A DNA stretch of 64,000 nucleotides from Pseudomonadota bacterium (GCA_039193195.1 JBCCWS010000001.1:69338-133337), one strand, 5' to 3'. Numbered from the stretch's first letter, positions 32,886 to 58,057 are shown. Program-made: numbers and translations. The notes: generated by a model not told the origin, from the sequence alone.

Positions 32886-34148
32886 ATGAGCGAAGAGATC
32901 AGCGGCCGTTACGTCAGCCGCCTTACGCGAGAGACCCTTGCCTTGGTACTCGCCGGCGGTCGCGGCAGCCGCCTCAAGCACCTCACGATCAACCGAGCCA
33001 AACCGGCCACGCCCTTCGGTGGTAAGTTCCGGATCATCGATTTTCCGCTTTCCAACTGCGTTAACTCTGGGATTAGGCGTATCGGCGTGCTCACGCAGTA
33101 CAAGGCGCATCCCTTGATTCAGCATCTCCAGCGAGGTTGGAGCTTCCTGCGCGGCGAATTCGGTGAGTACCTCGAGCTACTCCCCGCACAGCAGCGCGTG
33201 GACGGATCCTGGTATCAGGGGACGGCCGATGCGGTCTACCAAAACCTGGATATCATTCGCGCGCACAGGCCTACTCACGTGCTCGTGCTGGCCGGCGATC
33301 ACATCTACAAGATGGATTACGGTCCGATGATCGCCCAGCATGTCGAGCGCGAGGCGAAGATCACCGTGGGCTGTATTGAGGTCTCCCTAGAGGAGGCGCG
33401 CGAGTTCGGCGTCATGTCCGTAGACGATGAGCTACGGGTGAAGGCTTTCACGGAGAAGCCCGCGCAGCCGGATCCGATCCCAGGGCGCACGGACACGGCG
33501 CTCGCCTCCATGGGAATCTACGTGTTCGACGCCGATTTCCTCGCGCAGGAGCTGACGGCGGACGCTAAGAACTTCGAGTCCAGCCACGATTTCGGCAAGG
33601 ACATCGTGCCGCGCAACGTGCCCGACGGCACCGTGTGGGCCTACCCCTTCCGTGACGTGAAGACCCGCGCCCAGCACTACTGGCGCGACGTGGGAAATGT
33701 GGATGCGTTCTTCGAAGCCAACCTCGAACTTGTTGGCGTGAACCCGGAGTTGAACCTCTACGATGAGGCTTGGCCCATCTGGACCGAGCAGCGCCAGTCA
33801 CCACCTGCCAAATTTGTGCTCAACGATCCTGAGCGCCAAGGCGTCGCGCTCAACTCGATGGTCTCCGGTGGTTGCATCATCTCCGGCGCGCGCATCGAGC
33901 AGTCCCTGCTGTTCTGGGATGTGCGCGTGGAGTCCTACAGTCGCATCCACCGAGCAGTCATCTTGCCCGGCGTGCGCATCCGTCGGCACTGCCGCCTGAG
34001 CAACTGCGTGATCGACGAGAACGTACAGCTGCCGGAAGGCACGGTGATTGGCGAGGACCCGGAGGCGGATCGCGAGCGGTTCTTCGTCACCAACAAGGGT
34101 GTCGTACTGGTCACGCCGGACATGCTCGGCGACGAACCAAGCGTCTGA
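32886..34148 (+). CDS. glgC: Glucose-1-phosphate adenylyltransferase
   Basis: [42 protein letters not shown]-terminal signature, and a C-terminal left-handed beta-helix region. Confidence 0.95.
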
Positions 34149-35777: not shown

Positions 35778-36328
35778 TCAGCCATGCACCGAACTATCTT
35801 CATAGGTACCGTCGTGCTCCATGGCGTCGCTGATAGACTGCTCTTCGGGTGCAGCGAACTCGTAGATATCGGCGCCGGATAGAACGCTGTCGAGCATCGG
35901 GTTGTTGGCCCCCCTCCCCTTGCTCCAGCCGTTCGATACTGCTTGCCACGTAGGCGTCTGCAGGATCCGCGTGTCGGATCTCCGTTTCGATTTCCATGTC
36001 CGCGCGGAGGGCAGCCTCAGACGCTGGCCGCACGCTCTCCACCACGGCGAGGGTGCCGGGCTGTGCGCTCGACCGCCTGGGCGATCTCCAGCGCCTTGCC
36101 GAGCTTGTCGATAGTGTCGAAGTGCTTGCCGATGGCTTCGGTCTTCTGTGCGAGATCGGCGTAGTGCTCAAGGCGGTGGACCGCGTCGATGGCCATGTCC
36201 CAGTCCTTCGCCTTGGCCGCTGACACCAGTGTCTGAAGAGACTAGCTCTGTCCGTGTTTGGCCGCCCACGCCGCCAGATCGTTGAAGGTCTTCGCTTCGC
36301 TTGGGACTTCAGGGGGATCGCCAGCCAT
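35778..36328 (-). pseudogene. Possible decayed gene for an acidic helical protein: SD plus ATG, in-frame TAG after 28 codons, then two apparent frame changes
   Basis: AGGAG-N6-ATG at 36328. TAG at 36244-36242 is in frame with the GTG ORF at 36226. Protein-like translation passes through three frames, with one switch at a C6 homopolymer (35909-35914). Confidence 0.3.
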
Positions 36329-36472
36329 CTCATGCTCCTGGGTGGCGTTGCGCGTACCTGATTGGGCGCTGAACGGGTGGCAAGCGGCTCACCGAGGCTG
36401 CCCGCCATCGACCGTGAGCCAAGCTGGCGTCCGATCACGCCTGAACAGGCAAGGACCCTAGGAGGCCGTTCT

Positions 36473-36937
36473 ATGTCTGCAGCCCAATCCCCTCGCGCCG
36501 GGGCACCGTCCATCGTGTATCGCTACGGGGCCCTCGCTTGGGTCTGGCGCGCCCTGATCGCTGTGGCCTTCTCCCTGACCGGTGCGGCCCTGCTCCTGTC
36601 CTTCAAGATTGGAGATTGGGGTCTCGTCTACGTGGCTTTGCCTATGTTCATACCGGCCGCCGTCGGCGGCTGGGTCACCGTGACGCGCATCGAGGTCCCC
36701 GCTGGCGAGCGCAGCGTGCTCCAGGTCAGTAACCTCCTGGGCGTGCCGAGGCGAATCGAGCGCCGGCGCCTGCGGGGCACATGGAAGCGGGACACGGTCT
36801 ACGGCACCTATGGGCAGCCGATTCCCGCACCGCGCCTTTGGGTCTGGGTGCGTGGAGGCATGCCCCTGTACCTCGATCTCTTAGCGCCGCTCGTCGATCG
36901 CAGCGCCCTCCAGTGCCTGATCAGCACCGGTTCCTGA
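36473..36937 (+). CDS. Membrane protein with two TM helices and a small beta-rich C-terminal domain (bacterial PH-like?)
   Basis: SD ggagg 8 nt upstream of ATG 36473. TM helices LAWVWRALIAVAFSLTGAALLL and LVYVALPMFIPAAVGGWV. Confidence 0.55.
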   Translation: MSAAQSPRAGAPSIVYRYGALAWVWRALIAVAFSLTGAALLLSFKIGDWGLVYVALPMFIPAAVGGWVTVTRIEVPAGERSVLQVSNLLGVPRRIERRRLRGTWKRDTVYGTYGQPIPAPRLWVWVRGGMPLYLDLLAPLVDRSALQCLISTGS

Positions 36938-36997
36938 GCCGATTTCGAGTTCCCCCACGCCTGAAGGAACAACCCTCACACGAATCGACGGAGCTAG

Positions 36998-37882
36998 ATG
37001 ATGGCTGATGGCAAGACCCCGGATCAGGAACAGGACACCGCCACCGAGCTCGGTCCGAACATGTGGTTCACCGAGTACGGCATGCCTTTCACGACCATGA
37101 TCCTCGAGGCGGAGGCGGCCGAGCGAAACAACCCGGACACGCCGCCGCAAGAGGAACGCAGCGAACTCGCCCAGTTCATCATCGATCAGGAAACGGCGGT
37201 TGCGCGCGATTACCACGCAGGGCTCATTGGCAAGGAGGAGTTCGAGGGCTACAAGGCGGATGCCCAGGACCGCTTCGACAACATGGTCGACAAGCTGAGC
37301 ACGGAGATCGAGGAGTTTGGTGATGATTTCGAGGACTGGGGCAAGGACTTTGAAGTCTCCGTGAAGGACTTCGCCAACGAGCACGGCGGGGAGATCGAGT
37401 CCATCGTAGACCTTGCCAAGACGCGTGAGCTCGAGGCCAAGGACGTCTCCCTGCACCTGATGGCAGATGCCATGGGACTCGGTGTGGACGGCGTGGACGA
37501 TCTGCTCGAGCGTATGCCGCCTCACCTGCACGATATCGTTGAGACCTTAGGTGAAGAGACTGTGGGCGTAGCCCACCACCTGCTCGATGCGCGCGAAGAA
37601 CTTAGCTCCGCCGAGGAACACGATCTCAGCCGGGACGAGGCGCGTCTGGAGGCGATCGAACCTGTATTCGAGGCGCAGATTGACGAGGCGCACGAGGGTA
37701 TCGACCAGGACTTCGACCGCATCGACAACGACCTCGGCATCGTCCAGGACTACGTCGAGGCCGCCAAGGATCACGGTGAACTCAATCCGCAGCTCACGGT
37801 GGAGCACATGCCCTACCGCACCACGGAAGACTACGACCTGCCGGAGCAGGTCGAAGATAACACCGGCATCACGGACGCCTAG
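36998..37882 (+). CDS. Highly acidic cytoplasmic hypothetical protein (294 aa)
   Basis: Long GC3-biased ORF with no TM helices. D/E-rich helical sequence. 13 nt upstream of the FHA gene. Confidence 0.6.
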   Translation: MMADGKTPDQEQDTATELGPNMWFTEYGMPFTTMILEAEAAERNNPDTPPQEERSELAQFIIDQETAVARDYHAGLIGKEEFEGYKADAQDRFDNMVDKLSTEIEEFGDDFEDWGKDFEVSVKDFANEHGGEIESIVDLAKTRELEAKDVSLHLMADAMGLGVDGVDDLLERMPPHLHDIVETLGEETVGVAHHLLDAREELSSAEEHDLSRDEARLEAIEPVFEAQIDEAHEGIDQDFDRIDNDLGIVQDYVEAAKDHGELNPQLTVEHMPYRTTEDYDLPEQVEDNTGITDA

Positions 37883-37894
37883 GCACCCATACCC

Positions 37895-38518
37895 ATGAGC
37901 GCTGTAGACTCCACCGTTCACGGCGGCGTAGGTACACGGGTCCTGCGTACTACGAGCTTGTACACCGTGGCCGCTTGGTGCGCCGCGCTCGGTGCCCCAG
38001 AGCTGCTGCCAAGCTTCGGCCTCGAGGGCGATGTGTACGTGCGCTGGATTGCGCTCGGTGCTGCCGCCAGCGTGCCGATCGTGGCGCTTAGCGCCTGGTG
38101 CTGGGAGCGTGCTTGGCACCGTACTTGCGCAGGCCCAGCGCCGTCGCCCGCTCAGTCACCGACGATCGCCATGGAGCCTACCGTCGCGACCATCGGCAAG
38201 GCGGCCATCTCCATGCAATGGCGAGGCGAGCTGCATCACTTCGACCAAGACCTCGTCATCGGGCGTGCCCCGAGCTGCTCCCTGCACCTGGACGACCCGC
38301 AGATCTCCCGCCGCCATGCAGCCATCGAGTATCGCCGCGGCCGCTGGGTACTGAAGGATCTCGGTTCGCGCAACGGAACACGCCTCGATGGGCAGTTGAT
38401 CGACGGCCAGGTGGTGCTCGGTGCTAAGGGCCGGATCGACTTCTACGAAGGCGGTGTGCCCTTAGTCGTGCACACGGGGCTCGGCGGCGCGACAACTGTC
38501 AGCGACAGTACTGATTGA
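37895..38518 (+). CDS. Membrane-anchored FHA-domain protein
   Basis: Two N-terminal TM segments. FHA core LVIGRAPSCSLHLDDPQISRRHAAIEYRRGRWVLKDLGSRNGTRLDG. Confidence 0.8.
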   Translation: MSAVDSTVHGGVGTRVLRTTSLYTVAAWCAALGAPELLPSFGLEGDVYVRWIALGAAASVPIVALSAWCWERAWHRTCAGPAPSPAQSPTIAMEPTVATIGKAAISMQWRGELHHFDQDLVIGRAPSCSLHLDDPQISRRHAAIEYRRGRWVLKDLGSRNGTRLDGQLIDGQVVLGAKGRIDFYEGGVPLVVHTGLGGATTVSDSTD

Positions 38519-40982
38519 GTCGCTCCTCCACAGGTTCCAGACCGCCGGCAACATCGGCTGCAGACAGGGTTGCCCCCGCCCGTTGTAGTCCTCGGTAGAG
38601 GGTTTGCGCGTGACGGTAGTAGGGGCAGCCATCGGCCGCCACCCCGTCGGCCGCTGCAATGTCACCGAAATCGGTCAGGGCGATCGCCTGGTCGCGGATC
38701 AGCGCGTCGTTTTCCTCCTCATCCTCCGCCAGCTTGCGGAACGTGGCTACGGCGGTGTCGATGCTGCTGCGCGCCTCCTTATGTCGCTCGAGACCGGAAA
38801 GCGCCTTGGCGACCTGTTGGTGGGTGAGGCCTAGGTTGCGTCGGTTCTGCGCATCGCCCGGCTCCGCGATGACGAGCGTCTGGGCTGCCGTGCGGCTAGC
38901 GATGCCGTAGCGCAGCGCCTCGTCGAATTGCTCGAGGGAGGCGTGCAAGTTGCCTAAGTTGTGATTGAAGCGGATCAGTTGCACTAGGAACTGAACGTTC
39001 TCCGGCTCCTCGGCGGCGCGTTCCTCGTAGAAATGTAGGGCCTCGAGGTAGTCAGGGATCGCGGCTTGAGCGTTGCCTGCGTCGGCGTAGGTCTCCCCGC
39101 GCAGGCCGTAGGCGTAGGCGCGCTTGCCAGCCCAGTTGCGCAAGTTCTCCCGCCAGTCGGATTGCTCCAGCTGAGGCAAGTACTCGCCAAGCAACCCTAG
39201 TGCGTCGTCGAAGTTGCGCGCCCATACGAGCACCTTCACCAGGTCGATGCGAAGGTTCCAGCGTCGACTCTGGAGCGTCCAGTCCGCGTCGCCCAGCCGT
39301 GCTAGGGTGCGATCGGCCAGGGTCAGGCCTTCGCGCGCATGTGCCTGCGCCACGTCGGTATCCATGTCGTAGTGGAGCGTGTGGTTGGTGGCGAGCCGCT
39401 TGACCCAAACCATCTCTGCCACCGCTTGGGCGTTGTTGGGTTCGAGCGTAATCAGCTTCTCGAGGGCCAGCTCTGCCTTCTCCAGTTGCTCCAAGCCCTT
39501 CTGGTTCTGTCCTAGGCTGGAGACCCCGAGCCCAGCGAATACATCGTATAGGCGAGAGTAGTTCGAGCCAATGTCCAGCAGTAGATCCGGTGGTGCGGAA
39601 GGGTCGGCTGCGAGCTCATCTAGGAAGCGCTCACCTGTAGCGGCAAGCTGCTCCCGGGCCGGGAGCGTGCCCTGCACATGGGACATGCGATCGTACACGT
39701 CGTACAGCACCTCGCGAGCTAGCTGCCGCGCCTGGCCGAAGCGCGCTTCGGCTCGTTGCTGTGCTTCGGTGGCTGCTTGGTATTGCACTAGGGTGACGGC
39801 GTAGGCCACGGCGAGCGCCGTGCCCGCAAGCACAGCGCTGGCCACTGCTAGGCGTCGGCGGCGAATGAACTTTCCCAACCGATAGGTAAGCGAATCACCC
39901 TTGGCGTGCACCGGGAACCCACTGAGGTAGCGGCGAAGATCATCAGCGAAGGCGGCGACGGAGGGGTAGCGCCTGCTAGGTTCCTTCGCCATCGCCTTTA
40001 GCACGATGGCGTCGAGATCACCACGTAGGCGTCCCCAGTCGGGCAGATCGCGCCGGCGTGCCCGCTGGCTAGGGGCATCTGGGCGCCGCTGGGTAATCAC
40101 CTGCTCGTACTGTGCTGGCGAGAGGCTCTCGGTCTCGAAGGGGCGTTCGCCCGTCAGCATTTGGTAGAGAGCAACCCCCAGCGAGTAGACATCCGTGGCG
40201 GTGGTAAGGGGCTCGCCGCTGACCTGTTCGGGGCTTGCGTAGGCGGGCGTCAAGAGCATGGCCACCGTCTCCTCGCCAGTTTCCTTCGGCAGCAGTGAAC
40301 GTGCGATACCGAAGTCTAGGAGTTTAGGTTCGCCGCCCGCGCTCACCAGCACGTTGCTCGGCTTGATGTCGCGGTGGATCACCAGTGCTCGGTGGGCGTG
40401 TTCGACGGCCGAGCAGACTTTCAGGAACAGCTCGATGCGCTCTGGGATGCTCGAGGGATGAGCGCGCAGGTAGACATCGAGGGGATCGCCGTCGATGTAC
40501 TCCATTACCACGAAGGGCAAGCCATCTTCGGTGGTGCCACCGTCGAGGAGAATGGCGATTCCCGGATGGCGCATGTCCGAGAGAATTTGGCGCTCGCGCT
40601 CGAACTGAGCGACGGCCCGGCTGCCGATGGCGGAAGCGCGGATCACCTTGACGGCCACCTTGGCGTCGAAGGCACCGTCGTCGCGCTGGGCGAGGTACAC
40701 CTGACCCATTCCACCTTCGCCGATGAGCTCGAGCACTCGATAGGGGCCGATGCGCTTGCCCGTGAGCTGTTGCTCGGCGCAGCGCACCATCAGTGTGATC
40801 TCCTCCTCCCCCATACCGGTCTCCTGAGCGGCGGCGCTGATCAGGCGATCGGCGCGTGAGCGCAGGAGTGCCGGGCAGTGCGCATCTAGCCAGTTGCCGC
40901 GTCGGGCCTCTGGAACATCGAGGGCGCTCTCCACCAACCTCAGCAGTTGTTTTCCCGTGTCATGGGAGTCGGGTTTTGTCAT
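38499..40982 (-). CDS. Ser/Thr protein kinase with one TM helix and a long TPR-repeat C-terminal region
   Basis: GEGGMGQVYLA glycine loop, VAVKVI, HRDIKPSNVL catalytic loop, DFGIA, PAYASPEQ. TM LAVASAVLAGTALAVAYAV. TPR-like repeats to the C-terminus. Confidence 0.9.
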   Translation of the reverse strand: MTKPDSHDTGKQLLRLVESALDVPEARRGNWLDAHCPALLRSRADRLISAAAQETGMGEEEITLMVRCAEQQLTGKRIGPYRVLELIGEGGMGQVYLAQRDDGAFDAKVAVKVIRASAIGSRAVAQFERERQILSDMRHPGIAILLDGGTTEDGLPFVVMEYIDGDPLDVYLRAHPSSIPERIELFLKVCSAVEHAHRALVIHRDIKPSNVLVSAGGEPKLLDFGIARSLLPKETGEETVAMLLTPAYASPEQVSGEPLTTATDVYSLGVALYQMLTGERPFETESLSPAQYEQVITQRRPDAPSQRARRRDLPDWGRLRGDLDAIVLKAMAKEPSRRYPSVAAFADDLRRYLSGFPVHAKGDSLTYRLGKFIRRRRLAVASAVLAGTALAVAYAVTLVQYQAATEAQQRAEARFGQARQLAREVLYDVYDRMSHVQGTLPAREQLAATGERFLDELAADPSAPPDLLLDIGSNYSRLYDVFAGLGVSSLGQNQKGLEQLEKAELALEKLITLEPNNAQAVAEMVWVKRLATNHTLHYDMDTDVAQAHAREGLTLADRTLARLGDADWTLQSRRWNLRIDLVKVLVWARNFDDALGLLGEYLPQLEQSDWRENLRNWAGKRAYAYGLRGETYADAGNAQAAIPDYLEALHFYEERAAEEPENVQFLVQLIRFNHNLGNLHASLEQFDEALRYGIASRTAAQTLVIAEPGDAQNRRNLGLTHQQVAKALSGLERHKEARSSIDTAVATFRKLAEDEEENDALIRDQAIALTDFGDIAAADGVAADGCPYYRHAQTLYRGLQRAGATLSAADVAGGLEPVEERLNQYCR

Positions 40983-41064
40983 CGTTGATCTACTTCTGCA
41001 AGACTGCTTGTAAGGTCGGCGCTGGTTTGCGACAGGCAGTCATTGGAAAAGAGCTTCACAGGCC
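40983..41064. promoter_or_regulatory. Divergent promoter region between the STK and ECF sigma genes
   Basis: 82-bp, relatively AT-richer spacer between divergent starts. I could not identify specific -35/-10 elements with confidence. Confidence 0.4.
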
Positions 41065-41619
41065 ATGAGTGACATCACCCAAGTGCTCCAGAACTGGTCG
41101 CAGGAGTCGTCGGAGGAGCGTGGTCGCGTGGTGGCGGCCATGTACGATGAGCTGCGGCGAAACGCCGTATCCCATCTGCGCAACGAGCGCCACGGAGATC
41201 TGCAACCCACTTCGTTGGTCAACGAAGCATTCATGCGGCTAATCAACATAACGCGCATCGACCTGAAGGGGCGAAACCACTTCCTAGGCCTCGCCGGGCG
41301 GATCATGCGCGAGATTCTGGTAGACGAAGCTCGCAAGCTGCGTGCCGCCAAGCGCGACCATGGCCTGCAGACCCGCTTCACGGGCGAGCACATGGGCGGC
41401 GACATGCCGGTGAGCGACTTGCTCGAACTTGATGAGCTGCTCAACGGGTTGGAGGCGATCGACCCCGTCTATGTGAAGCTCTTCGAAGCTCGCGCCTTCG
41501 CCGGCATGACGATCGAAGAAGCAGCCGAGGTGCTGGAGATGTCCCCGGCCACGGTGAAGCGCAAGTGGAAGGTCGCCATGGCCTGGGTGCGCGAACATAT
41601 GGGCGAGCCTACTGAATGA
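41065..41619 (+). CDS. ECF sigma factor of the TIGR02999 / ECF43-like (kinase-associated) type
   Basis: N-terminus MSDITQVLQNW..., YDELRRNAVSHL, LQPTSLVNEAFMRL (region 2), and region 4 FAGMTIEEAAEVLEMSPATVKRKWKVAMAWV. Divergent STK neighbour, with no anti-sigma gene adjacent. Confidence 0.9.
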   Translation: MSDITQVLQNWSQESSEERGRVVAAMYDELRRNAVSHLRNERHGDLQPTSLVNEAFMRLINITRIDLKGRNHFLGLAGRIMREILVDEARKLRAAKRDHGLQTRFTGEHMGGDMPVSDLLELDELLNGLEAIDPVYVKLFEARAFAGMTIEEAAEVLEMSPATVKRKWKVAMAWVREHMGEPTE

Positions 41620-42253
41620 CGATGGCCTGCTCCCAGATCTGAGCGATCTGCGAGAAGGGGACAGGTTGCGTGTAGTACGCCATCGGATCGTTGATGATCA
41701 GCATCGGCTCCATGGTGCCAAAGGGTGTCGGCATCCACGCCATACCGCGCAACACCACCACGTGCCCGGAGAACGGTGAGCTTTTTACGGCCATGATGAT
41801 CGCCTTACCCGCCGCAAGCGTCTGATACAGAGTCATCGGATCCGTAGGGTGTTGCACCGAGGAGTGCCTGCCGCCGTACTCGGCGATCAGGCCCTGAATC
41901 TGAGGTAGCTGTCCGGTGACCGTGCAGTTGGCTGGATTGGCGCAGCAGGTGTTGGGGTGCTGGCCGTAGGCGCGGGCCACTAAGGCGCACTGGGGCGGCG
42001 TCGCCTGGGGACCGTGCGTGGCCAGGATGATCTGCTGTGCCACCGCCGCCCAGCACCAGACTTGAGTCTCCTGCGGGATGTTCTGGATCGGCAGGTCAAC
42101 GGGGGGCGGAGGCTGCTGCGCTTGAGTCGGCCCCCAGCCCGGCGTGTGGCCAGGCTGGGAGTAGGGGGGTTGCGCCAGGGTGAGGCTGCTCGCTAGCAGT
42201 AGCACAAGGGCGGTGCAACGCGCGATGCTGCGCACGGCCGTGGTGCCCGTCAT
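41609..42253 (-). CDS. Secreted papain-fold cysteine peptidase (C39-like / C70 AvrRpt2-like)
   Basis: Signal peptide CTALVLLLASSLTLA. Q....WCWAAVAQQI candidate nucleophile context and downstream SGHVVVLRG candidate His. Start set at M9 (42253). Confidence 0.6.
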   Translation of the reverse strand: MTGTTAVRSIARCTALVLLLASSLTLAQPPYSQPGHTPGWGPTQAQQPPPPVDLPIQNIPQETQVWCWAAVAQQIILATHGPQATPPQCALVARAYGQHPNTCCANPANCTVTGQLPQIQGLIAEYGGRHSSVQHPTDPMTLYQTLAAGKAIIMAVKSSPFSGHVVVLRGMAWMPTPFGTMEPMLIINDPMAYYTQPVPFSQIAQIWEQAIVIQ

Positions 42254-42270
42254 CACACGGTGATGGCAGC

Positions 42271-42810
42271 TCACCACTCCCCGTCCGCTTCGTTACCGTC
42301 GATGACCACTTCAACGGCCTGATTCCAGCCCGTGTTCGGGCCCTGCGGGCCGTAGCCAGGTGCCTGGGGCCCGTAGCCCGGCGTCTGGGGTCCGTACCCG
42401 GGCGCCTGCGGACCTTGCGGGCCGTAGCCCGGCGTTTGGGGCCCGTAGCCCGGGGCGTGAGGGCCTTGCGGGCCGTAGCCTGGAGTCTGAGGCCCGTAGC
42501 CGGGTCCTTGCGGGCCGTACCCAGGACCTTGAGGGCCATAGGGAGCGGGCTGCGGGCCGGCGGGACCATAGCCTGGCCCGTTGCTAGGCACGGCGGCGCA
42601 GCCGCCGTTGCTGCCCGGTCCCGCCGTGGGGAGCATGCCCGGTGGGCACTGAGAGTAGGCCTGCTGGTTGCCCCAGGGCTGATTGGCGTACGGATCGCCG
42701 AGCATCCCCTGCTGCTCCGCCCAAAAGTATCCGCCCATACCCACCGCGATGGCGGCGATGAGGACGATTCGCTGTTGGCCGGTGAGTGTCTTTAGCTTAT
42801 TTAGGTCCAT
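42271..42810 (-). CDS. N-terminally membrane-anchored low-complexity protein with about 11 tandem PGYGPQ repeats
   Basis: TM IVLIAAIAVGMGGYFWA. Repeats (G/A/T)PGYGPQ span aa 77-160 (nt 42331-42582). Confidence 0.6.
   Translation of the reverse strand: MDLNKLKTLTGQQRIVLIAAIAVGMGGYFWAEQQGMLGDPYANQPWGNQQAYSQCPPGMLPTAGPGSNGGCAAVPSNGPGYGPAGPQPAPYGPQGPGYGPQGPGYGPQTPGYGPQGPHAPGYGPQTPGYGPQGPQAPGYGPQTPGYGPQAPGYGPQGPNTGWNQAVEVVIDGNEADGEW
42331..42582 (-). repeat. Coding tandem repeat (degenerate 18-27-nt units, core GGGCCGTAGCCNGG on the plus strand) encoding PGYGPQ units
   Basis: Repeated core seen directly about 11 times on the plus strand. Confidence 0.8.
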
Positions 42811-42883
42811 TGTTTTCGCTCCGGTGTGATGCCCGTTTCCCTAGGCGCACGAGGGGCGCCGATCGGCTCATGGGCAGATCGCG

Positions 42884-43297
42884 TTAGAGGTTGCCCTGGT
42901 AGTAATCCGGGTCGGGGTTCACGTAGCCAGGCTGCGGATACATGGCGCTGTCCATGCCTGGCGATAGGGCGGGGTAGGCGCCGGACTGCCCCGTCGGGCC
43001 GGGATAGCCGGGTTGGGGATAGCCGTTCGCTGGGTAACCCTGCTGGGGGTAGCCCGGCTGTGGGTAGTAGGCGGCGCCGGGGCCCTGCTGCATCAGGCCG
43101 TTCATTTGCTGCATCTCGAGCATCATCTGCTGCTGCTGCTGTTCGAGTTGCTGCTGCATCCAGGTTGCGGACTCCTGGGCCTGCTGCTGCATGGCCGCGT
43201 TCTGCGCCGCCACGCTGAGGGGGCCGGCCAGCTTGGCCAAGACGATCAGGCCGATGATGCCGAGGAGGAAGAGTTTTGGGAGGACGCTGCTGTTCAT
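42884..43297 (-). CDS. Signal/anchor-bearing low-complexity protein: Gln-rich coiled segment followed by a (Q)PGYP Tyr/Pro/Gly-rich tail
   Basis: ATG 43297. LFLLGIIGLIVLAKLAG, then MQQQAQESATWMQQQLEQQQQQMMLEMQQMNGLMQQ, then YYPQPGYPQQGYPANGYPQPGYPGP. Confidence 0.55.
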   Translation of the reverse strand: MNSSVLPKLFLLGIIGLIVLAKLAGPLSVAAQNAAMQQQAQESATWMQQQLEQQQQQMMLEMQQMNGLMQQGPGAAYYPQPGYPQQGYPANGYPQPGYPGPTGQSGAYPALSPGMDSAMYPQPGYVNPDPDYYQGNL

Positions 43298-43453
43298 GGC
43301 CTGGTGGCTCCGGTGGTCTGGGGGCTGTATCGGTCTAGGCGCGAGCGCGGGGGATTTCGGCTCACGCAGCGTGTGGCGATGGTGCGTGAGCTGATTCGCG
43401 CCTGCTCCGCGCCTAAGGGAGCAACCCATCCCCAAGAACGAGCGGAGCCGATC

Positions 43454-44299
43454 ATGACTGCCACCGAACCCACCATCGCCTGTCCCAAGTGCGCAAACCC
43501 AAATCCGCTCGGCGCCAAGTTCTGCAGCAGCTGCCGGGCTCCCCTGGGCGTCGCCACTGCGCCTCCGGGCCCTGCCGCCGCGCCGCCCCCGCGTCCCGCC
43601 GCGGGCCTCGCCGGCATGGTGGGTGCGGGCGCCGGCAAGAGTGAGACTCGCCAGCTACAGGCGGACGCGGCATCCGTCTTCGAGCACCTCTCCAACGGCC
43701 TGCGCAACCGCGGCGGCCAGGTGCAGCAGGAGATGCCGATGCAGTTGAATATCAAAGTGCCTTACAAGAGCTTCTGGCTCACGTTGGGCGCGGTGATCCA
43801 GGTCGATACCGCCATGCAGGTGGTGCCGACAGCGGCCGGCCAATGTCAGGCCACGCTCACCACCAAGACCGATGGCAGCAGTTTGAACAACGTGTGGACG
43901 TGGTTCGCCGTGTCTTTCACGATCCTGCTCTTCTTGAACCTCTACATCTTCCCTATCATCATTCTGCTGGGAGCGGTCAGCGCCTTCTTCAACCACCGCC
44001 AGCTCAACAGCCAGCCTGGCGCAAAGATCACCGAAGAGCTCTTCGCCGATCTCAACAACAACCTATCGTCCTTGACAGCCAGTGCGGATCAAGCCACTCA
44101 ACCCGCGCCTGGACCTAGCCTCCAACCAGAGCCGCAACCCGCGCCACAGGCCAGCAACTGCGCAAGCGAAGAGAAGCAGGGACTCGAGCAGGAAGAGGTC
44201 TTTGACCGCTTGGCTAAGCTCGCCAAGCTGCGCGAGATGGGCGCGGTGACGGAGGAGGAGTTCGACGCCAAGAAGGCTGAACTTCTCAAGCGCATCTAG
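43454..44299 (+). CDS. Zinc-ribbon / TM / SHOCT-domain protein
   Basis: N-terminal CPKCANPNPLGAKFCSSC. TM region VWTWFAVSFTILLFLNLYIFPIIILLGAVSAFF. C-terminal SHOCT-like EEVFDRLAKLAKLREMGAVTEEEFDAKKAELLKRI. The track's N-terminal extension is antisense to the previous gene. Confidence 0.65.
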   Translation: MTATEPTIACPKCANPNPLGAKFCSSCRAPLGVATAPPGPAAAPPPRPAAGLAGMVGAGAGKSETRQLQADAASVFEHLSNGLRNRGGQVQQEMPMQLNIKVPYKSFWLTLGAVIQVDTAMQVVPTAAGQCQATLTTKTDGSSLNNVWTWFAVSFTILLFLNLYIFPIIILLGAVSAFFNHRQLNSQPGAKITEELFADLNNNLSSLTASADQATQPAPGPSLQPEPQPAPQASNCASEEKQGLEQEEVFDRLAKLAKLREMGAVTEEEFDAKKAELLKRI

Positions 44300-45798
44300 T
44301 GGCGAGCGAAGCGGTCGCGCAGTACTGCGTCGCCTGCGGTCATACCCTGCAGGTCGGCGCCAGCTTTTGCACCGAGTGCGGGCACGAGATCGGCAAGGTG
44401 CCGGCGGCAACCGGCAGTTGGCAGGCGCCGCAGATGCTCGGCGGCACCTGCACGACCTGCGGCGGCGACGGCTCCCTGCTCGAGGCAAGCCAGGTCTACT
44501 GCCCAAGCTGCCGCTGGCTGCGCCCCCTAGGCGAGGACTACTTCGTCGACCTCGACGCCTTCATTTGGCAAATGGACGCTCAGGCCATGCAGGCGCTCAA
44601 CAGCACGGGCGCCGTTGCGAGCGCAGCGCACTCCATCGCCGAGCGCTACGGTCGTCCGGTCTTCGAGGCGGCGACCAATGGTATACGCCTCTCCGAGCGG
44701 CAAATGCCAGAGATCTTCGACATTGCGATCCGCGCGGCGCGTTTGCTGTCGCTATCGCACATGCCGGAGGTGTACATCTCCGGCCAGCGCATGTGGGACG
44801 TCTACTCGCTCGGGGGCTTCAGCGGCAGCTTCGTCTCGATAGGCAGCGTCTTGATTAACTTCAAGCCGAAGGACCTGTTGTTCCTGATCGCCCGGGAGAT
44901 GGGCCACGTGCGGGCGGGCCACGTGTACTGGTCCACCGCGATGCAGTTTCTCATGGGGCAGTCCAAGGGCCAGGGGACGATCCTTGGGGAGGGTGTGTTT
45001 CAGTTCTTAAACCCCACCAAGATCATCGAGTCTGCGATAGAAGCGCCGATGATGCGCTGGGCCCGTCACTCGCAGATCACGGCGGATCGTGCCGCGGCGC
45101 TGGTGACTGGGGACATCGACACGGCACGCCGGGTGTTGACCCAATGGGCCATGAAGTCCTTCCCGGTCGCGGGCAAGATGAATCTCGACGCCTGGCTTGA
45201 GCAGGAAGCGGCGGCCGACGATCCCTACCTCAAGCTGTCCGAGTGGACGATGTCCACCGAGCCCTATCTGGCGCCACGGTTGAAGTCCCTGAACGCGTTC
45301 GTGCACTCGCAGGCCTTCCTCGAGTGGTTCGCGTACATCCAACACTGGAGCGAGCAAGCAGGCCTTCCCTCGTTTGACGATGGTGCCGCGAAGAAAGCCA
45401 AGCGCGCTAAGCCCGCGCCATCGCCGCCGCCGAACACGGAGAGGATCGAGTGTCGGGCCTGCGGTGAGGCCATGCGCGTGCCCACCCACATCCTGGAGGG
45501 CGACAAGCCCGTCAACGTGCGCTGCCCGAACAAGGCCTGTCGCAAGGTACTGCGGGTCAAGCCGAGGAAGAGGCGGACGGCGAGCGAGGAGTCCCCACGA
45601 ACCCGTCGTGCGCGCGAAAAGGTCAAGCTCAACTGCGCTGCCTGTGGGGAGGCGATGATGGTGAACCGGGCGGATCTGGCGGGAGATGAACCCGTCAACG
45701 TGCGCTGCCCGAACGCCGCGTGCGGCGAGATTCTCACGATCAAACCGAAGAGGCGCGATGACGCATCGACCAATCGACCGGATCTGATGGCGGACTAG
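44299..45798 (+). CDS. Double zinc-ribbon protein with an M48-like peptidase domain carrying a degenerate HExxH (REMGH) and two C-terminal zinc-ribbon repeats
   Basis: CVACGH..CTECGH and CTTCGG..CPSC. FLIAREMGHVRAGH at 44893-44907. Duplicated C(R/A)ACGEAM...PVNVRCPN(K/A)AC modules. The GTG start overlaps the upstream TAG by 1 nt. Confidence 0.65.
   Translation: MASEAVAQYCVACGHTLQVGASFCTECGHEIGKVPAATGSWQAPQMLGGTCTTCGGDGSLLEASQVYCPSCRWLRPLGEDYFVDLDAFIWQMDAQAMQALNSTGAVASAAHSIAERYGRPVFEAATNGIRLSERQMPEIFDIAIRAARLLSLSHMPEVYISGQRMWDVYSLGGFSGSFVSIGSVLINFKPKDLLFLIAREMGHVRAGHVYWSTAMQFLMGQSKGQGTILGEGVFQFLNPTKIIESAIEAPMMRWARHSQITADRAAALVTGDIDTARRVLTQWAMKSFPVAGKMNLDAWLEQEAAADDPYLKLSEWTMSTEPYLAPRLKSLNAFVHSQAFLEWFAYIQHWSEQAGLPSFDDGAAKKAKRAKPAPSPPPNTERIECRACGEAMRVPTHILEGDKPVNVRCPNKACRKVLRVKPRKRRTASEESPRTRRAREKVKLNCAACGEAMMVNRADLAGDEPVNVRCPNAACGEILTIKPKRRDDASTNRPDLMAD
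45508..45714 (+). repeat. Intragenic duplication: 24-bp perfect copies (cccgtcaacgtgcgctgcccgaac) at 45508-45531 and 45691-45714, within two 61-aa-spaced zinc-ribbon modules
   Basis: Identical 24-mers read directly. The flanking protein sequence is similar but diverged. Confidence 0.85.
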
Positions 45799-45811
45799 GG
45801 GAGGCCGATCG

Positions 45812-46315
45812 ATGAGCGAAAGAGAGCCACCGCAGGAGTTTGAAGTCTACCTCGCTGAGGATGGGCATCAGGAAGTGCCGGCGGAGGGTTTCGTCCCGCA
45901 AGAGGGTGTTGTTGTGGAGCGCGCTGCCTCCGCGCGCGACAGCGTTGCCCCGAGCGCTCAGGGCGCTGCGAATTCCGCCCAGAGTCAAGCGCAGGCATTT
46001 CAGGCTGCTCAAGCCAATGCCCAGGTTCAGCAGAGCCTAGCCGAGAGTGAGGTGGCTGCGGCCGATCTGCTCGCTGAGGAGCAGGCGCGGGAGCGCGAGG
46101 AAGAGCACCGACTCGAGGTGGAGATCGCTGAGGATCAGCGCCAGGAAGCCCTCGAAGCGCAAGCCGATGCCGAGGCGGAGCGCCTGGAGGCGCAGGAGGA
46201 GCGCGCCCGAGAAGAGCAGGCGCGTGAGCGGGAGGAAGCAGAGGCCCGCGAGCGGGAAGAGCAAGAAGAGGACGAGGACGACGCGCAAGACGACGGATCG
46301 GACCTCTACGTTTGA
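45812..46315 (+). CDS. Glu/Arg/Ala/Gln-rich coiled-coil-like acidic protein (167 aa)
   Basis: SD ggggagg upstream. EEQAREREEEH / EERAREEQAREREEAEAREREEQEEDEDD low-complexity tail. 13 nt after the previous stop. Confidence 0.5.
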   Translation: MSEREPPQEFEVYLAEDGHQEVPAEGFVPQEGVVVERAASARDSVAPSAQGAANSAQSQAQAFQAAQANAQVQQSLAESEVAAADLLAEEQAREREEEHRLEVEIAEDQRQEALEAQADAEAERLEAQEERAREEQAREREEAEAREREEQEEDEDDAQDDGSDLYV

Positions 46316-46377
46316 GCCAATCCGCCGGTCGTGCACGCCTAGGCAGATAGGCACCCGAACCAACCGAGGAACGTCCC

Positions 46378-46959
46378 ATGGCCGAATTACGTTTCACTGA
46401 CATCGATCGCCCTGAACCCGGCACCGCCGAGGCCGTCGAAGCGGAGTACGAAGTCGAGCTCGCCGGTCTGAACGACAACGAGAGCGCTCAGGTAAAGGAG
46501 GCCATCAGTGAGGCCGAGTTCAACAACGAGCTCGATCAGTTGGACGTGAGCGAAGAGCTGCAGCAGGCCCAGTTTGCCGAAGAGGACCGAGCCGCCGCGG
46601 AGACCTTGCGTGAGGAGCAAGTGGAAGCCGCTGACGTTGGCAACTACGACGCGGCGCGCGAACGCGCTGAACAGGTTCGCGAAGAGCTACGCGAATCCAG
46701 CGACGAACACGGCGGGCAACTCGACGCGGCGCTGGCAGAGAACGCGCACGACGTGGAAGTGCTGAGCGAAGCGGACTTCCAGCAGGAGAACGCCGAGTTC
46801 TTCGAGAATGCGGTAGTGGATATGCCGAGTGCCGAGGGCGTCGATGGGGCCGTGGACGACGCTTGGGATGCGCAGGATGCTGCGGACGACGCGGCTGCGG
46901 ACAGCACGGATTTCGCCGACACGGGCGGCGATAGCTCTATCTACACCGACGTTAGCTAG
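46378..46959 (+). CDS. Highly acidic hypothetical protein (193 aa)
   Basis: SD gagga upstream. D/E/A-rich, with no TM. Confidence 0.5.
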   Translation: MAELRFTDIDRPEPGTAEAVEAEYEVELAGLNDNESAQVKEAISEAEFNNELDQLDVSEELQQAQFAEEDRAAAETLREEQVEAADVGNYDAARERAEQVREELRESSDEHGGQLDAALAENAHDVEVLSEADFQQENAEFFENAVVDMPSAEGVDGAVDDAWDAQDAADDAAADSTDFADTGGDSSIYTDVS

Positions 46960-46964
46960 GCCCC

Positions 46965-47270
46965 ATGAGCAGGCAGCGCAGCGGGCGTTGGATCGAGGCC
47001 GTCCCGGCGAATACGGCGCGCGCCGAACAGCGTCGCGCCCAGGTCACAACGCCGCCTGCGCACTCAATACCCGGCGACGGCAACCCGCCGTTAGGGGGTG
47101 AGGATGTGCAGCCACCGCCAGTGCAGGGCGAGCGCCTCATCGAGGCCAAACCCTCGGACGCCGGCGCAGACGATCACCCCGTAGATGAAGACGGCTCAGC
47201 GAGCGACCTAGACGATCAGGCGCAGGGCCATTCCCCTGACGTCCTCTGCGACCCTTCCGACGAAGATTAG
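46965..47270 (+). CDS. Small acidic/Pro-rich hypothetical protein (101 aa)
   Basis: ATG 5 nt after the previous stop suggests coupling. The composition is weakly protein-like. Confidence 0.35.
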   Translation: MSRQRSGRWIEAVPANTARAEQRRAQVTTPPAHSIPGDGNPPLGGEDVQPPPVQGERLIEAKPSDAGADDHPVDEDGSASDLDDQAQGHSPDVLCDPSDED

Positions 47271-47277
47271 TGTCACC

Positions 47278-48180
47278 TCAGGCCCTGCGGGCGGATGCCC
47301 CGAAGTTTGGATCGTAGGGTCCGCCATCGCCGAGCGCGAGATGGCGTGCTCGCACCAGGGGCTTGCGCTGCTCCTTGCGCTCGTTGAGGGACCTGTCCGC
47401 TCGGGTCAGCGCGATGGAGATGTCTTCCTCCTCCTCGAGCCAGGTCGTGCCGATACTGCAGCGGACCGCGGTAGGGCCCGTGCCCGACCTGCGCGGGGCG
47501 GACAAGGTCAGTGAGGTGCACTGCGTTTGTAACGCGTGTTCGAGGCACTGTGCTTCGCCATGCGCGGCGCTGACGACGAAAGCGAACTCATCGCCGCCGA
47601 GACGACCGACTATCCCGTAGTCGCCGATGAGGGCTTCGAGCGCCTCGCTCACGCGCACCAGCGCGCTGTCGCCGACTTCGTAACCGAATCTGTCGTTTAG
47701 TGCCTTAAAATGATCAATATCGACCATGCCAATCAAGCAGCTTTGCGTGGAGCGGCGCTCGCTATGTAGGCGCGCGACGGCGGTAAAGAAACCTCGTCGG
47801 TTATAGGTACCGGTGAGTGGATCGGTGGTCGATAGGTGAAGCGCCAGGGCCAGCGTGTTGTCCAGATGCCCCAACAGGCGCACGATCAGCAGCGTGGCCG
47901 CGGGTGCTACCACCGCCGGTATCAGACCGGCTAGGGCGAAGGCGAAGCGGGTATCTTGTGTGGTGAAGGCCCCGGCACGAATCTGGGCAGCGAGGCCCAC
48001 CGCCGTAAGGGCCTCGGACATCACGATCGAGAAGACCGTCACGCAGGCGATGATGCCGCCGCCGCCAACATCGCGGTACACGCTCAGGAGGCGGCTATTC
48101 AGCCTATCGAGGGTCAGTTCGTGGTCTTCTTGGGTCACGCTACTCTCCACCCCGTAAGTCGCGAGGCGAGAGGCTGGCAC
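47278..48180 (-). CDS. Membrane-anchored diguanylate cyclase (intact GGDEF, no RxxD I-site)
   Basis: N-terminal TM helices. LTGTYNRRGFF and GRLGGDEFAFVV. Confidence 0.85.
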   Translation of the reverse strand: MPASRLATYGVESSVTQEDHELTLDRLNSRLLSVYRDVGGGGIIACVTVFSIVMSEALTAVGLAAQIRAGAFTTQDTRFAFALAGLIPAVVAPAATLLIVRLLGHLDNTLALALHLSTTDPLTGTYNRRGFFTAVARLHSERRSTQSCLIGMVDIDHFKALNDRFGYEVGDSALVRVSEALEALIGDYGIVGRLGGDEFAFVVSAAHGEAQCLEHALQTQCTSLTLSAPRRSGTGPTAVRCSIGTTWLEEEEDISIALTRADRSLNERKEQRKPLVRARHLALGDGGPYDPNFGASARRA

Positions 48181-48367: not shown

Positions 48368-49588
48368 TCAGGATGCGCAAACCTGCACGGTCTCGCCGAT
48401 GTCGTTGAGGATATGTCGCAGGTGGTCGTAGTCCGGATGGCGAACGCGCATCCAGGCGCCGGCCATGTAGCCACCCTCGACGGAACCTGCGGGCGCTCCG
48501 GGGCTCGGGATGTTCGCGGCCACAATGTCGTTATGGTAGCGCTTGCCGATTTCATCGAGACCCTCCACGTGGGTGACGCGGCCGTCGCGGTCGGCGCGCA
48601 GGGCGATCATGCCGCAGGCGAAGCGACGCGAGGGTCGCTGTACGGTGCGCCCGTGACAGACGGCCATGGCCCAGTCGCGGTACAGATCGATGTCGTTGCC
48701 CGCGTTGTACACATCCCACTGACACACGCCCGGTGGCCGGCAGCCGATCTCTGAGAACTTAAGCCCCTTCGGCCCGATGAACCACTCCATGTGGGTGGCG
48801 GCCGTGGGGATGCCGAGCACGTCGATGACCTTTTGCGCCATCGCTTTGACCTCACTGTACCCCTCCGCGTCCACTCGGTTGGTGGCCACCATCTGGGGTG
48901 AGATCCAGCGCGTGCGCATGGCCTCGAGCACGTTCGGGTAGTAGTGGGTGATGAACTCGTAGGCGATCTGACCGTTCACGGTGATGGTGTCGAGGAAGCC
49001 CTCGTGGCCTTCGATGAACTCTTCTACCGCTGTCGGCGCGCCGCGGTCGACGCCGCTCTCGCTGATCGCCACCTTGAGCTCTTCATTGGTACGGGCCTTC
49101 CAGGTGCCGGCCGCGCCGGCCGCGGCACGCGGCTTCAGGATCACCGGCAGGCCGACCTCGTCGACGAAGTCACGCACTTCCTCGGCGGAGCTGGCGCCGG
49201 TGGAGAGGGCGCAGGGCACGCCGGCAGCCCGCAGCACTTCCTTCATCGCGGGCTTATCGCGGCAGAGGTAAGCGGTGCGCGCGGAGACGCCCGGGATGCC
49301 GCAGCGTTCACGGACGTTCGCCGCGGCCTCCACGTGGGCTTCCACGGTCGCTTCCAAGCGATCGACCCAGAGGCGACTCTGCACGTTGCGCACCGCCTCC
49401 TCGAGCTGACGCTCGTTCACTACCGAGCCGATCTGCACGTAATCGAACAGCCAGCTCGAGAGCTGCGGATCGAGCCAGTCTCGCGGACGTTCGCCGATGC
49501 CGATCACCGTGGCGCCGGCGGCGTGCAGGCCGCGCACGAACTCGCGCTGGTTGGCAGGGAAACAGGGTTCGACGAAGATCACGTTCAT
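48368..49588 (-). CDS. ATP-grasp domain ligase (carboxylate-amine/thiol ligase superfamily)
   Basis: Pre-ATP-grasp Rossmann-like N-terminus. Central CRDKPAMKEVLRAAGVPCA...LPVILKPRAAAGAAG...VEEFIEG...EIGCRPPG pattern typical of ATP-grasp enzymes. Confidence 0.8.
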   Translation of the reverse strand: MNVIFVEPCFPANQREFVRGLHAAGATVIGIGERPRDWLDPQLSSWLFDYVQIGSVVNERQLEEAVRNVQSRLWVDRLEATVEAHVEAAANVRERCGIPGVSARTAYLCRDKPAMKEVLRAAGVPCALSTGASSAEEVRDFVDEVGLPVILKPRAAAGAAGTWKARTNEELKVAISESGVDRGAPTAVEEFIEGHEGFLDTITVNGQIAYEFITHYYPNVLEAMRTRWISPQMVATNRVDAEGYSEVKAMAQKVIDVLGIPTAATHMEWFIGPKGLKFSEIGCRPPGVCQWDVYNAGNDIDLYRDWAMAVCHGRTVQRPSRRFACGMIALRADRDGRVTHVEGLDEIGKRYHNDIVAANIPSPGAPAGSVEGGYMAGAWMRVRHPDYDHLRHILNDIGETVQVCAS

Positions 49589-49626
49589 GGCGTCACCACA
49601 GCGGATGCTGATTGAGTTAGCGGAAG

Positions 49627-51120: not shown

Positions 51121-51124
51121 CGCG

Positions 51125-52366: not shown

Positions 52367-52430
52367 GTTCGTCTCCCCATAGCCATTGATGCCGGCGCCG
52401 CAGTCCCCCGCGTGCGCCGCGAAGTGTCCG

Positions 52431-57955: not shown

Positions 57956-58057
57956 GACCGGCGGCAGCCCGGTGCTGACGAACGGTCGGCACCTGGCACG
58001 CTTGTCGGCACGCCCCAGCAGTTGCTTAGTTTTCGGAAATACGCGAATCTGCGGCCC

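Follow-up and report, generated by a model that had tools for sequence, protein, structure and literature searches.

An ECF43-type sigma factor and its adjacent PknS-like kinase in an uncultured Pseudomonadota bacterium, with a membrane FHA protein and six putative target promoters

To our knowledge, activation of a sigma factor by Ser/Thr phosphorylation has been shown experimentally for a few pairs only, namely EcfP/PknT, EcfK/PknS, and one pair from Hyphomonas. Here we describe what is probably another pair of this kind, located in a stretch of 64,000 nucleotides from a Pseudomonadota bacterium (GCA_039193195.1 JBCCWS010000001.1:69338-133337); this whole stretch is called the window below, and its first letter is position 1 of all coordinates given without a locus name. 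Sigma factors of the extracytoplasmic function (ECF) group ECF43 are co-encoded with a Hanks kinase, have no anti-sigma factor, and have lost the acidic DAED/DxxD residues of Region 2.2 (PMC13147305, PMC8999054). The consensus in this region is QTTA (STTA in EcfP and QATE in EcfK), and its Thr is the phospho-acceptor, which is needed for binding to the β' subunit of RNA polymerase (PMC13147305, PMC8999054); Thr occupies the third position in 88% of ECF43 members (PMC13147305). In EcfK, phosphorylation of T51 or T106 is 'required and sufficient' (PMC13147305). PknS, the kinase of EcfK in Xanthomonas citri, has 833 residues, arranged as an 83-residue N-terminal extension, the kinase domain, a transmembrane (TM) helix, and periplasmic tetratricopeptide repeats (TPRs) (PMC13147305); the structure of PknS(1-364) is available as 9EED.

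The window locus is likely to be an ECF43-type signaling pair of the PknS/EcfK and PknT/EcfP kind, with a six-promoter regulon that includes an FHA (forkhead-associated) protein; the functional steps set out below are those that we infer. An earlier note on this DNA had named the three open reading frames (ORFs) at its core, and all three were found with exactly the coordinates proposed. The core genes and their parts are as follows:

37895-38518, + strand: FHA protein, 207 aa, with a PF00498 FHA domain
37934-38128, + strand: predicted helical hairpin anchor of the FHA protein (structure model and orthologue alignment), followed by a disordered linker
38207-38476, + strand: FHA domain (PF00498)
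38499-40982, - strand: PknS-like transmembrane Hanks Ser/Thr kinase, 827 aa, with Pkinase domain and motifs
38502-39776, - strand: predicted periplasmic TPR solenoid of the kinase (structure model and fold matches)
39780-39854, - strand: predicted TM helix of the kinase
39966-40742, - strand: kinase domain (Pkinase match)
40743-40982, - strand: N-terminal extension of the kinase (residues 1-80), conserved in 5 related kinases
41065-41619, + strand: ECF43-type (TIGR02999) sigma factor, 184 aa, from profile scores
41209-41211, + strand: codon of sigma T49, candidate phospho-acceptor in the Region 2.2 motif QPTS
41380-41382, + strand: codon of sigma T106, candidate phospho-acceptor in the linker between sigma2 and sigma4

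The sigma protein scores 159.7 bits against TIGR02999, above the curated cut-off of 126.15 and with residues 1-179 covered, which bears out the family assignment made in the earlier note, and it matches PF07638 with E=6e-40; comparison with solved structures gave no direct sequence match at E<=0.01. Using an EcfK sequence rebuilt to ~94% from the phosphopeptides in Table S3 of PMC13147305, to which the window sigma is ~33% identical, it has been possible to place the candidate phospho-acceptors. The Thr in LQPTS, which had already been put forward as such a candidate, aligns with a mapped EcfK phosphosite: T49 pairs residue by residue with T51 (window, LQPTSLVNEAFMR; EcfK phosphopeptide, LQATELVHEAWMR; Table S3, PMC13147305), and a profile-guided alignment sets window LQP-T49-SLVNEAFMR opposite EcfK LQA-T51-ELVHEAWMR. 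In the linker, the same alignment sets window T103-R-F-T106-G-E108 opposite EcfK V103-T104-L-T106-I-S108, so that T106 pairs with EcfK T106 and E108 with EcfK S108. (This second conserved Thr, aligned with the second functional EcfK site, had been overlooked before.) Among 118 sigma homologues, Q47 is kept in 115 and P48 in 116; position 49 is Thr in 103 and Ser in 5 more (T or S in 108/118), and position 106 is S, T, D, or E in 110. Both activating residues of EcfK, T51 and T106, have aligned Thr counterparts in the window protein, the one in the linker being the less certain. The motif Q47-P48-T49-S50 contains no acidic DAED-type residue. Because QPTS replaces the acidic residues that contact the β' subunit of RNA polymerase in ordinary ECF sigmas, the sigma would be expected to be inert until it is phosphorylated.

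The kinase has its Pkinase domain at residues 81-339 (E=1e-44), a complete set of catalytic motifs (GEGGMG88, VAVK109-112, HRDIKPSN203, DFG223, and SPE250), and a single strong TM helix at residues 377-401. Among solved structures, 9EED_A comes closest (E=8.5e-53), with M. tuberculosis PknB behind it. The N-terminal extension has a conserved motif, LL-L-E-ALD-P---R--WL---CP, in common with the kinases of the related loci L001, L003, L005, and L006; the N-extensions of PknS and of the window kinase gave no phmmer alignment. The C-terminal 425 residues were modeled as 17 consecutive helices (mean predicted local distance difference test score, pLDDT, 85.5; predicted TM-score, pTM, 0.74), and the fold matches of the model are the LGN/Pins TPR domain, designed consensus TPRs, and the OGT TPR domain, with target TM-scores of ~0.6. 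(By a word-based search, which gave 2 relatives, this sensor domain is lineage-restricted; the model was accordingly built on a 3-sequence alignment.) These residues are thus predicted to be a TPR solenoid, which is placed outside the cytoplasm because of the membrane topology of the kinase. The TM helix and about 450 aa of extracytoplasmic or cytoplasmic TPRs claimed earlier were therefore essentially right, with a length of 425 residues and an extracytoplasmic rather than a cytoplasmic location.

The pairing of sigma and kinase was examined in a census of 80 loci with TIGR02999-type sigmas, taken from reference genomes, mostly Acidobacteriota, with their flanks scanned. A Hanks kinase is present in 72 of these loci, in 64 of them within 500 bp, and it lies no more than 3 kb away in 53 of the 57 loci that have at least 3 kb on each side; the kinase-beside-sigma signature on which the earlier note relied is thus widespread among related loci. 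In the commonest layout the kinase gene is downstream on the same strand (59/72), and the divergent layout of the window is seen in 6/72. Among close sigma orthologues, an adjoining kinase is found in the window and in L089, L001, L003, L005, and L006. Judged from gene order, the sigma-kinase pair is a hallmark of the family, and the predicted pair in the window is an ordinary new ECF43 example in an uncultured gammaproteobacterium. That the sigma belongs to the ECF43 kind and would be switched on by the adjacent Hanks kinase is supported, since every available computational test agrees. The locus had been called a phospho-relay module; the kinase-switched sigma in this description is supported, but the term is loose, as the reaction would be a one-step Ser/Thr phosphorylation.

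The domain scan took in about 57 plausible ORFs, over the full length of the window. The adjacent kinase is the sole Hanks kinase found, and no PP2C/SpoIIE domain was matched, the same outcome as the earlier statement that no PP2C phosphatase is visible. One candidate for a PPP-type phosphatase, at 59508-60575 (-), was rejected: it has a weak Metallophos_2/calcineurin-like match, and its nearest NCBIfam models are YaeI/LpxG, which points to a phosphodiesterase rather than a protein phosphatase. A search of the island, that is, of the genes surrounding the pair, gave no match to an anti-sigma domain (zf-HC2/RskA-type) in any protein, with several small membrane proteins of no assigned function remaining.

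Compared with PknS/EcfK, the window pair is alike in that the Thr of its uncharged Region 2.2 motif and its linker Thr align with EcfK T51 and T106, in that no anti-sigma match was obtained in its island, and in the order of the kinase parts: an N-extension of ~80 aa, the Hanks domain, one TM helix, and periplasmic TPRs, in 827 versus 833 aa. It differs, beyond the level of sigma identity given above, in that EcfK keeps one acidic residue (QATE), while the window sigma has none (QPTS) and is in this respect nearer to EcfP; in that the window genes are divergent and have a membrane FHA protein in their neighborhood; in output, which is a type VI secretion system (T6SS) for PknS/EcfK and putatively a small island that encodes peptidases together with secreted and membrane proteins here; and in host, Xanthomonadales in the one case and an uncultured metagenome-assembled genome (MAG) related to Pseudomonadales in the other. 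PMC8999054 and PMC13147305 describe the third-position Thr of EcfP, from Vibrio parahaemolyticus, as the phospho-acceptor, whose phosphorylation is proposed to enable binding of the β' subunit. PknT/EcfP is like the window pair in having no acidic residue at the DAED position (STTA in EcfP, QPTS here); it differs in sensor domain, regulon (polymyxin resistance in Vibrio), and gene order, as judged from the descriptions in these two papers.

When orthologous island genes were compared in their upstream regions, a bipartite element emerged: TGAGCC(A/G)nTTT ... GCGCCTA, that is, TGA[GAT]CC-N17-CGCCTA, with the consensus TGAGCC-N17-CGCCTA. The strict pattern occurs 3 times in the window, versus 0.075 expected from 200 Markov shuffles, and a weight matrix (>=14 bits) finds 6 sites versus 0.13 expected. 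All six lie within 36356-46348, each is aimed at the adjoining gene, and the -10 element ends 31-38 nt ahead of the start codon:

36356-36395, - strand: motif promoter of the decayed gene 35817-36328 (-), 18.9 bits
36931-36970, + strand: motif promoter P(acid294-FHA), TGAGCC-N17-CGCCTG, 24.0 bits; -10 ends 34 nt before the ATG at 36998
42835-42874, - strand: motif promoter P(PGY179-C70), 30.1 bits; the start at 42810 follows 31 nt downstream
43329-43368, - strand: motif promoter of the Q/P/Y-rich membrane protein gene, 34.6 bits; probable start at 43297
43383-43422, + strand: motif promoter P(Zn-ribbon/SHOCT - M48 - acid167), 27.9 bits; 38 nt upstream of the ATG at 43454
46309-46348, + strand: motif promoter P(g193-g101), 29.3 bits; the start at 46378 follows 36 nt downstream

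Each of the two flanking operons to which the earlier note had pointed, PGY/protease and zinc-ribbon, has one of these promoters before it. The counterparts of P(acid294-FHA) score 30.0 bits in L089 and 41.5 bits in L001, and the L089 counterpart of the site at 36356-36395 precedes an intact 338-aa gene. Before orthologous operons there are 6 sites in L089, 3 in L001, 8 in L005, 6 in L006, and 2 in L008. In L003, where the sigma-kinase pair stands in another context without the island, two motif sites flank its neighbors (a Sel1 protein and a second kinase). Across distant TIGR02999 loci, 1.27 Mb in all, there are 12 matrix sites versus 0-2 in shuffles, several of them beside the sigma gene; the distant sites keep the -35 half and vary in the -10 half. 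Because of its fixed spacer, its uniform distance to start codons, and its co-occurrence with the sigma across contexts, the motif most likely serves this sigma family as its cognate promoter, and it would delimit a compact putative regulon in which the FHA operon is included. The motif is absent upstream of the sigma and kinase genes, including the 82-bp kinase-sigma intergenic region. An autoregulatory promoter was also sought and rejected, as the sigma upstream regions in seven loci share no motif. Scans for sigma-70 promoters and for terminators over 35.2-47.5 kb gave nothing above shuffled expectation.

Taken together, these results suggest the following mechanism. The single-pass kinase would sense an envelope or extracellular cue through its periplasmic TPR solenoid, and its cytoplasmic Hanks domain would autophosphorylate and then phosphorylate the sigma at Thr49 in Region 2.2, and probably also at Thr106. 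The phosphate would supply the negative charge that lets the sigma bind β'/core polymerase, and the holoenzyme with phosphorylated sigma would read TGAGCC-N17-CGCCTA promoters. The six promoters would drive the operons flanking the pair, which encode the acidic protein and the FHA protein; P/G/Y/Q-rich membrane proteins and a papain-like peptidase; the zinc-ribbon/SHOCT protein and an M48 peptidase; and small proteins. Since both the sigma gene and the kinase gene are without the motif, they are presumably expressed constitutively. The FHA protein may be an output of the pathway, because its gene is downstream of a motif promoter; tethered beside the kinase, it would most likely feed back by binding a phosphothreonine (pThr) of the kinase, or else one of the sigma or of another substrate, a role suggested by the predicted anchoring of its cytoplasmic pThr-binding domain in the membrane close to the kinase. 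Two things go beyond the known systems: a membrane FHA protein, specific to the lineage, that goes with the kinase and lies in the putative regulon, and six delimited candidate promoters. The locus offers a compact case: its sigma has both candidate activating sites and keeps no acidic charge in the motif, its kinase is a PknS-like sensor, six putative target promoters stand within 10 kb, and a pThr reader is encoded in the putative regulon, with no phosphatase found nearby. If the reading is true, part of the ECF43 family would gain a promoter consensus, and there would be a candidate for feedback control that can be tested.

Several observations weigh against this reading. It is through co-occurrence only that we infer the motif to belong to this particular sigma, and no published ECF43 promoter consensus was found with which the motif could be compared. 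An ungapped pairwise alignment shifts the linker by one residue and pairs T103 with EcfK T104, which makes the assignment of T106 less certain than that of T49. The sigma orthologues of L007 and L008 retain the QPT motif and have no kinase within 8 kb, so that kinase adjacency is not obligatory, and the short kinases of L005 and L006 are without the TPR domain. The description of the module as anti-sigma-less agrees with the lack of any anti-sigma domain match in the island, but absent matches are not proof. As for the FHA protein, any FHA-domain ORF is found in the flanks of just 2 of the 80 census loci, both of them FHA-GAF-SpoIIE phosphatases; L006 has the island and no FHA gene; and more distant members of the FHA family stand in unrelated contexts without the promoter motif. 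By these counts the FHA protein is not a general ECF43 component, its proposed role being drawn from lineage-specific synteny and the shared promoter motif only.

These last points also favor an alternative that is somewhat unlikely but must be taken seriously, in which the FHA gene is a mere neighbor whose product works with the upstream acidic protein or in other pThr signaling rather than in the kinase-sigma pathway. Distant family members occur in a T6SS cluster, beside an autotransporter, or without a nearby kinase, and a second FHA protein, 17 kb off in the window, indicates that other pThr signaling exists in this organism. On the other side, the five independent full-length FHA orthologues (window, L089, L090, L001, and L005) all adjoin the orthologous kinase despite rearrangements. 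In the window and in L089 the two genes overlap convergently by 20 nt (38499-38518 in the window, with TGA stops on both), as had been noted earlier; in L090 the convergent genes are 82 nt apart, in L001 the gene of an MFS transporter separates them, and in L005 four genes lie between. The overlap is therefore kept in the congeneric MAG locus L089 and not beyond it, that is, at genus level only. All five FHA genes stand downstream of the motif promoter, which in L090 (25.7 bits) immediately precedes the FHA gene and in the window, L089, and L001 precedes the FHA operon, and the adjoining kinase is the one Hanks kinase found in the window.

The FHA protein itself matches PF00498 with E=5e-19 and has the pThr-binding residues G123-R124, S138-R-R-H141, and N160-G161-T, of which G123-R124, S138-R-R-H141, and N160-G161 are invariant across orthologues. 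In the structure model, helices 14-41 and 46-78 form a hairpin (pLDDT 55-69), followed by a disordered linker and an FHA beta-sandwich with pLDDT ~90, and the orthologues have in common the N-terminal segment R(K/R)V--VT--Y-VAAWG--LG--EL-PSFG ... AW-YE. The protein had been described as having two TM segments; a conserved hairpin is indeed modeled, but its first segment is weakly hydrophobic and model confidence is modest. Given the basic residues ahead of the first helix and behind the second, both termini should lie in the cytoplasm, and with them the FHA domain. The hairpin-plus-FHA architecture recurs in ~17 further clusters at 50% identity (exhaustive HMMER search), and in the distant members whose contexts were checked neither the promoter motif nor an ECF43-type kinase was found. 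L091 has no kinase, and L093/L094 has a non-orthologous kinase 6 kb away, plus an autotransporter and a caspase-like peptidase. Because these contexts differ and the motif is absent from them, the linkage of FHA protein and kinase would be specific to this gammaproteobacterial subfamily.

One distant member, 45% identical, is found at L095:6253-6924 (and in L096) inside a T6SS cluster (VgrG, PAAR, a TagH-type FHA protein, TssJ, and VipA/B). The 3' end of its gene in L095 overlaps a TPR-methyltransferase gene convergently, and there is no kinase or sigma on the contig; the T6SS setting echoes the T6SS link of EcfK/PknS. The second FHA protein of the window, at 58022-59455 (+) and ~17 kb from the module, joins a P-loop ATPase (AAA_22) at its N-terminus to an FHA domain at its C-terminus (E=4e-22), and points to further pThr signaling in the organism. 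Its ATPase part resembles that of the XrtA/PEP-CTERM system (251 bits, under the cut-off of 324), and its gene is convergent with the ORF at 59508-60575 (-).

Within the preferred reading of the locus as an ECF43-type pair with a regulon, a more specific role for the FHA protein can be put forward, and it is offered as speculation that we hold to be rather doubtful. The FHA protein would be a regulon-encoded third component, induced by the phosphorylated sigma, that binds pThr on the kinase or on the sigma (pT49-S-L-V) and thereby sets the gain or duration of signaling; in the extreme form, it would be a phospho-specific anti-sigma at the membrane, an off-switch that replaces the missing anti-sigma and phosphatase. 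Known systems offer partial likenesses. FhaB/FipA (Rv0019c) with PknA/PknB, and Fha/TagH with PpkA-PppA of the T6SS, also place a small membrane-anchored protein with a C-terminal FHA domain beside a transmembrane Hanks kinase, but the hairpin anchor in the window comes from a different, modest family, and the window has no cell-division or T6SS genes. (Of the NCBIfam models, FhaB_Rv0019c matches the FHA protein best, with E=1.3e-15 over the FHA domain only; since its 57.8 bits are far under the cut-off of 125, the protein would not be an FhaB/FipA orthologue.) Two loci of Acidobacteriota, L056 and L060, likewise have a pThr reader in the neighborhood of an ECF43-type sigma and kinase; there, however, FHA is fused to a PP2C-type phosphatase, while the window protein has no catalytic domain and no phosphatase nearby. 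At L056:10552-15944 the phosphatase adjoins the sigma, and a Zn-ribbon-kinase-FHA fusion and a small FHA protein are also present; at L060:18478-20139 an FHA-GAF-SpoIIE (PP2C-type) phosphatase lies near the TIGR02999 sigma. By their predicted domains, these two loci are an independent and differently built link of pThr readers with ECF43-type sigmas.

The remaining genes of the island, most of them members of the putative regulon, are as follows:

35817-36328, - strand: decayed gene; its intact form in L089 encodes a 338-aa acidic protein
36473-36937, + strand: conserved 154-aa membrane protein at the left edge of the island, start set by orthologue alignment; only a weak motif-like site (36415-36443) upstream
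36998-37882, + strand: acidic 294-aa protein (pI 4.06, 27% D+E; no Pfam match), first gene of the FHA operon
41609-42810, - strand: PGY/C70 operon of two genes, putative regulon
42271-42810, - strand: membrane-anchored PGYGPQ-repeat protein, first gene of the PGY/C70 operon
41609-42277, - strand: secreted papain-like Cys peptidase (Peptidase_C70/AvrRpt2-like match, E=5.6e-7), second gene of the PGY/C70 operon
42884-43297, - strand: membrane-anchored Q/P/G/Y-rich protein, putative regulon gene
43454-46315, + strand: Zn-ribbon/SHOCT-M48-acid167 operon of three genes, putative regulon
43454-44299, + strand: zinc-ribbon + TM + SHOCT protein, first gene of this operon
44299-45798, + strand: double-zinc-ribbon M48 metallopeptidase, second gene of this operon
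45812-46315, + strand: acidic 167-aa protein, third gene of this operon
46378-47270, + strand: g193-g101 operon of conserved 193-aa and 101-aa proteins of no assigned function, putative regulon

The zinc-ribbon genes of this list underlie a second alternative, in which the sigma is controlled by sequestration and proteolysis: the zinc-ribbon/TM/SHOCT protein would be an unconventional anti-sigma, the M48 peptidase would degrade that protein, and the kinase would be an accessory. The two genes track the sigma more strictly than the kinase does, being present in L008, where there is no kinase within 8 kb, and the protein is laid out like many anti-sigma factors, with a Zn-binding N-terminus in the cytoplasm and a membrane segment after it. 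We nevertheless consider such control improbable. The SHOCT protein has no zf-HC2/RskA-type anti-sigma match, and its Zn site is a ribbon rather than a helical anti-sigma domain; the two genes are not co-transcribed with the sigma and have their own motif promoter, like other regulon members; and, as the sigma is without the acidic Region 2.2 residues, release alone should not activate it. The last alternative, that the kinase is an anti-phage defense kinase of the PD-T4-6, Stk2, or MADS type whose adjacency to the sigma is incidental, was rejected as extremely improbable together with any known defense system at the island, because, although the PADLOC PD-T4-6 and mad6 models (E down to 1.8e-69) and NCBIfam MADS6 match the kinase, these matches are limited to the generic catalytic domain (for MADS6, 152 bits where the cut-off is 460), PADLOC defense models match nothing else in the island and no companion genes match, the closest solved relative of the kinase is PknS, and sigma-kinase adjacency is a family hallmark.

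Some of the island genes call for further description. In the decayed gene, residues 1-88, 244-290, and 295-327 align in three different frames and ~155 codons are gone; the motif promoter is kept. The acidic 294-aa gene is separated from the FHA gene by a 12-nt gap, and the orthologues of its product in L089, L001, L005, and L006 are 51-91% identical. A conserved pT-x-x-D ligand in the C-terminus of this operon partner was considered and rejected, as conservation is lacking at the Thr. At its N-terminus the SHOCT protein has a zinc ribbon (43454-43550) with a weak match to the NCBIfam model '4Cys_prefix_kin' (E=1e-4, 22.4 bits versus a cut-off of 24), a domain named from its occurrence as a prefix on kinases.

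The island extends further in L005:13469-16549, L006:13117-16558, and L008:3615-6380, where a ~900-aa Peptidase_C11 (clostripain-like) protein is encoded, with an autotransporter in L005 and L006; the window and L089 are without both, and their island ends at a GGDEF gene (47278-48180 in the window). This gene is followed by an operon at 48368-53594 (-) that encodes two ATP-grasp proteins, a GT5 starch/glycogen-synthase-like glycosyltransferase, and an esterase, and then by an S51 peptidase gene (53591-54529). A glgC gene is present at 32886-34148. Elsewhere in the window, and unrelated to the module, three large consecutive genes at 17550-25596 (+) encode FG-GAP/ASPIC-UnbV repeat proteins with TPRs, as well as a protein with multihaem cytochrome-like and TPR regions.

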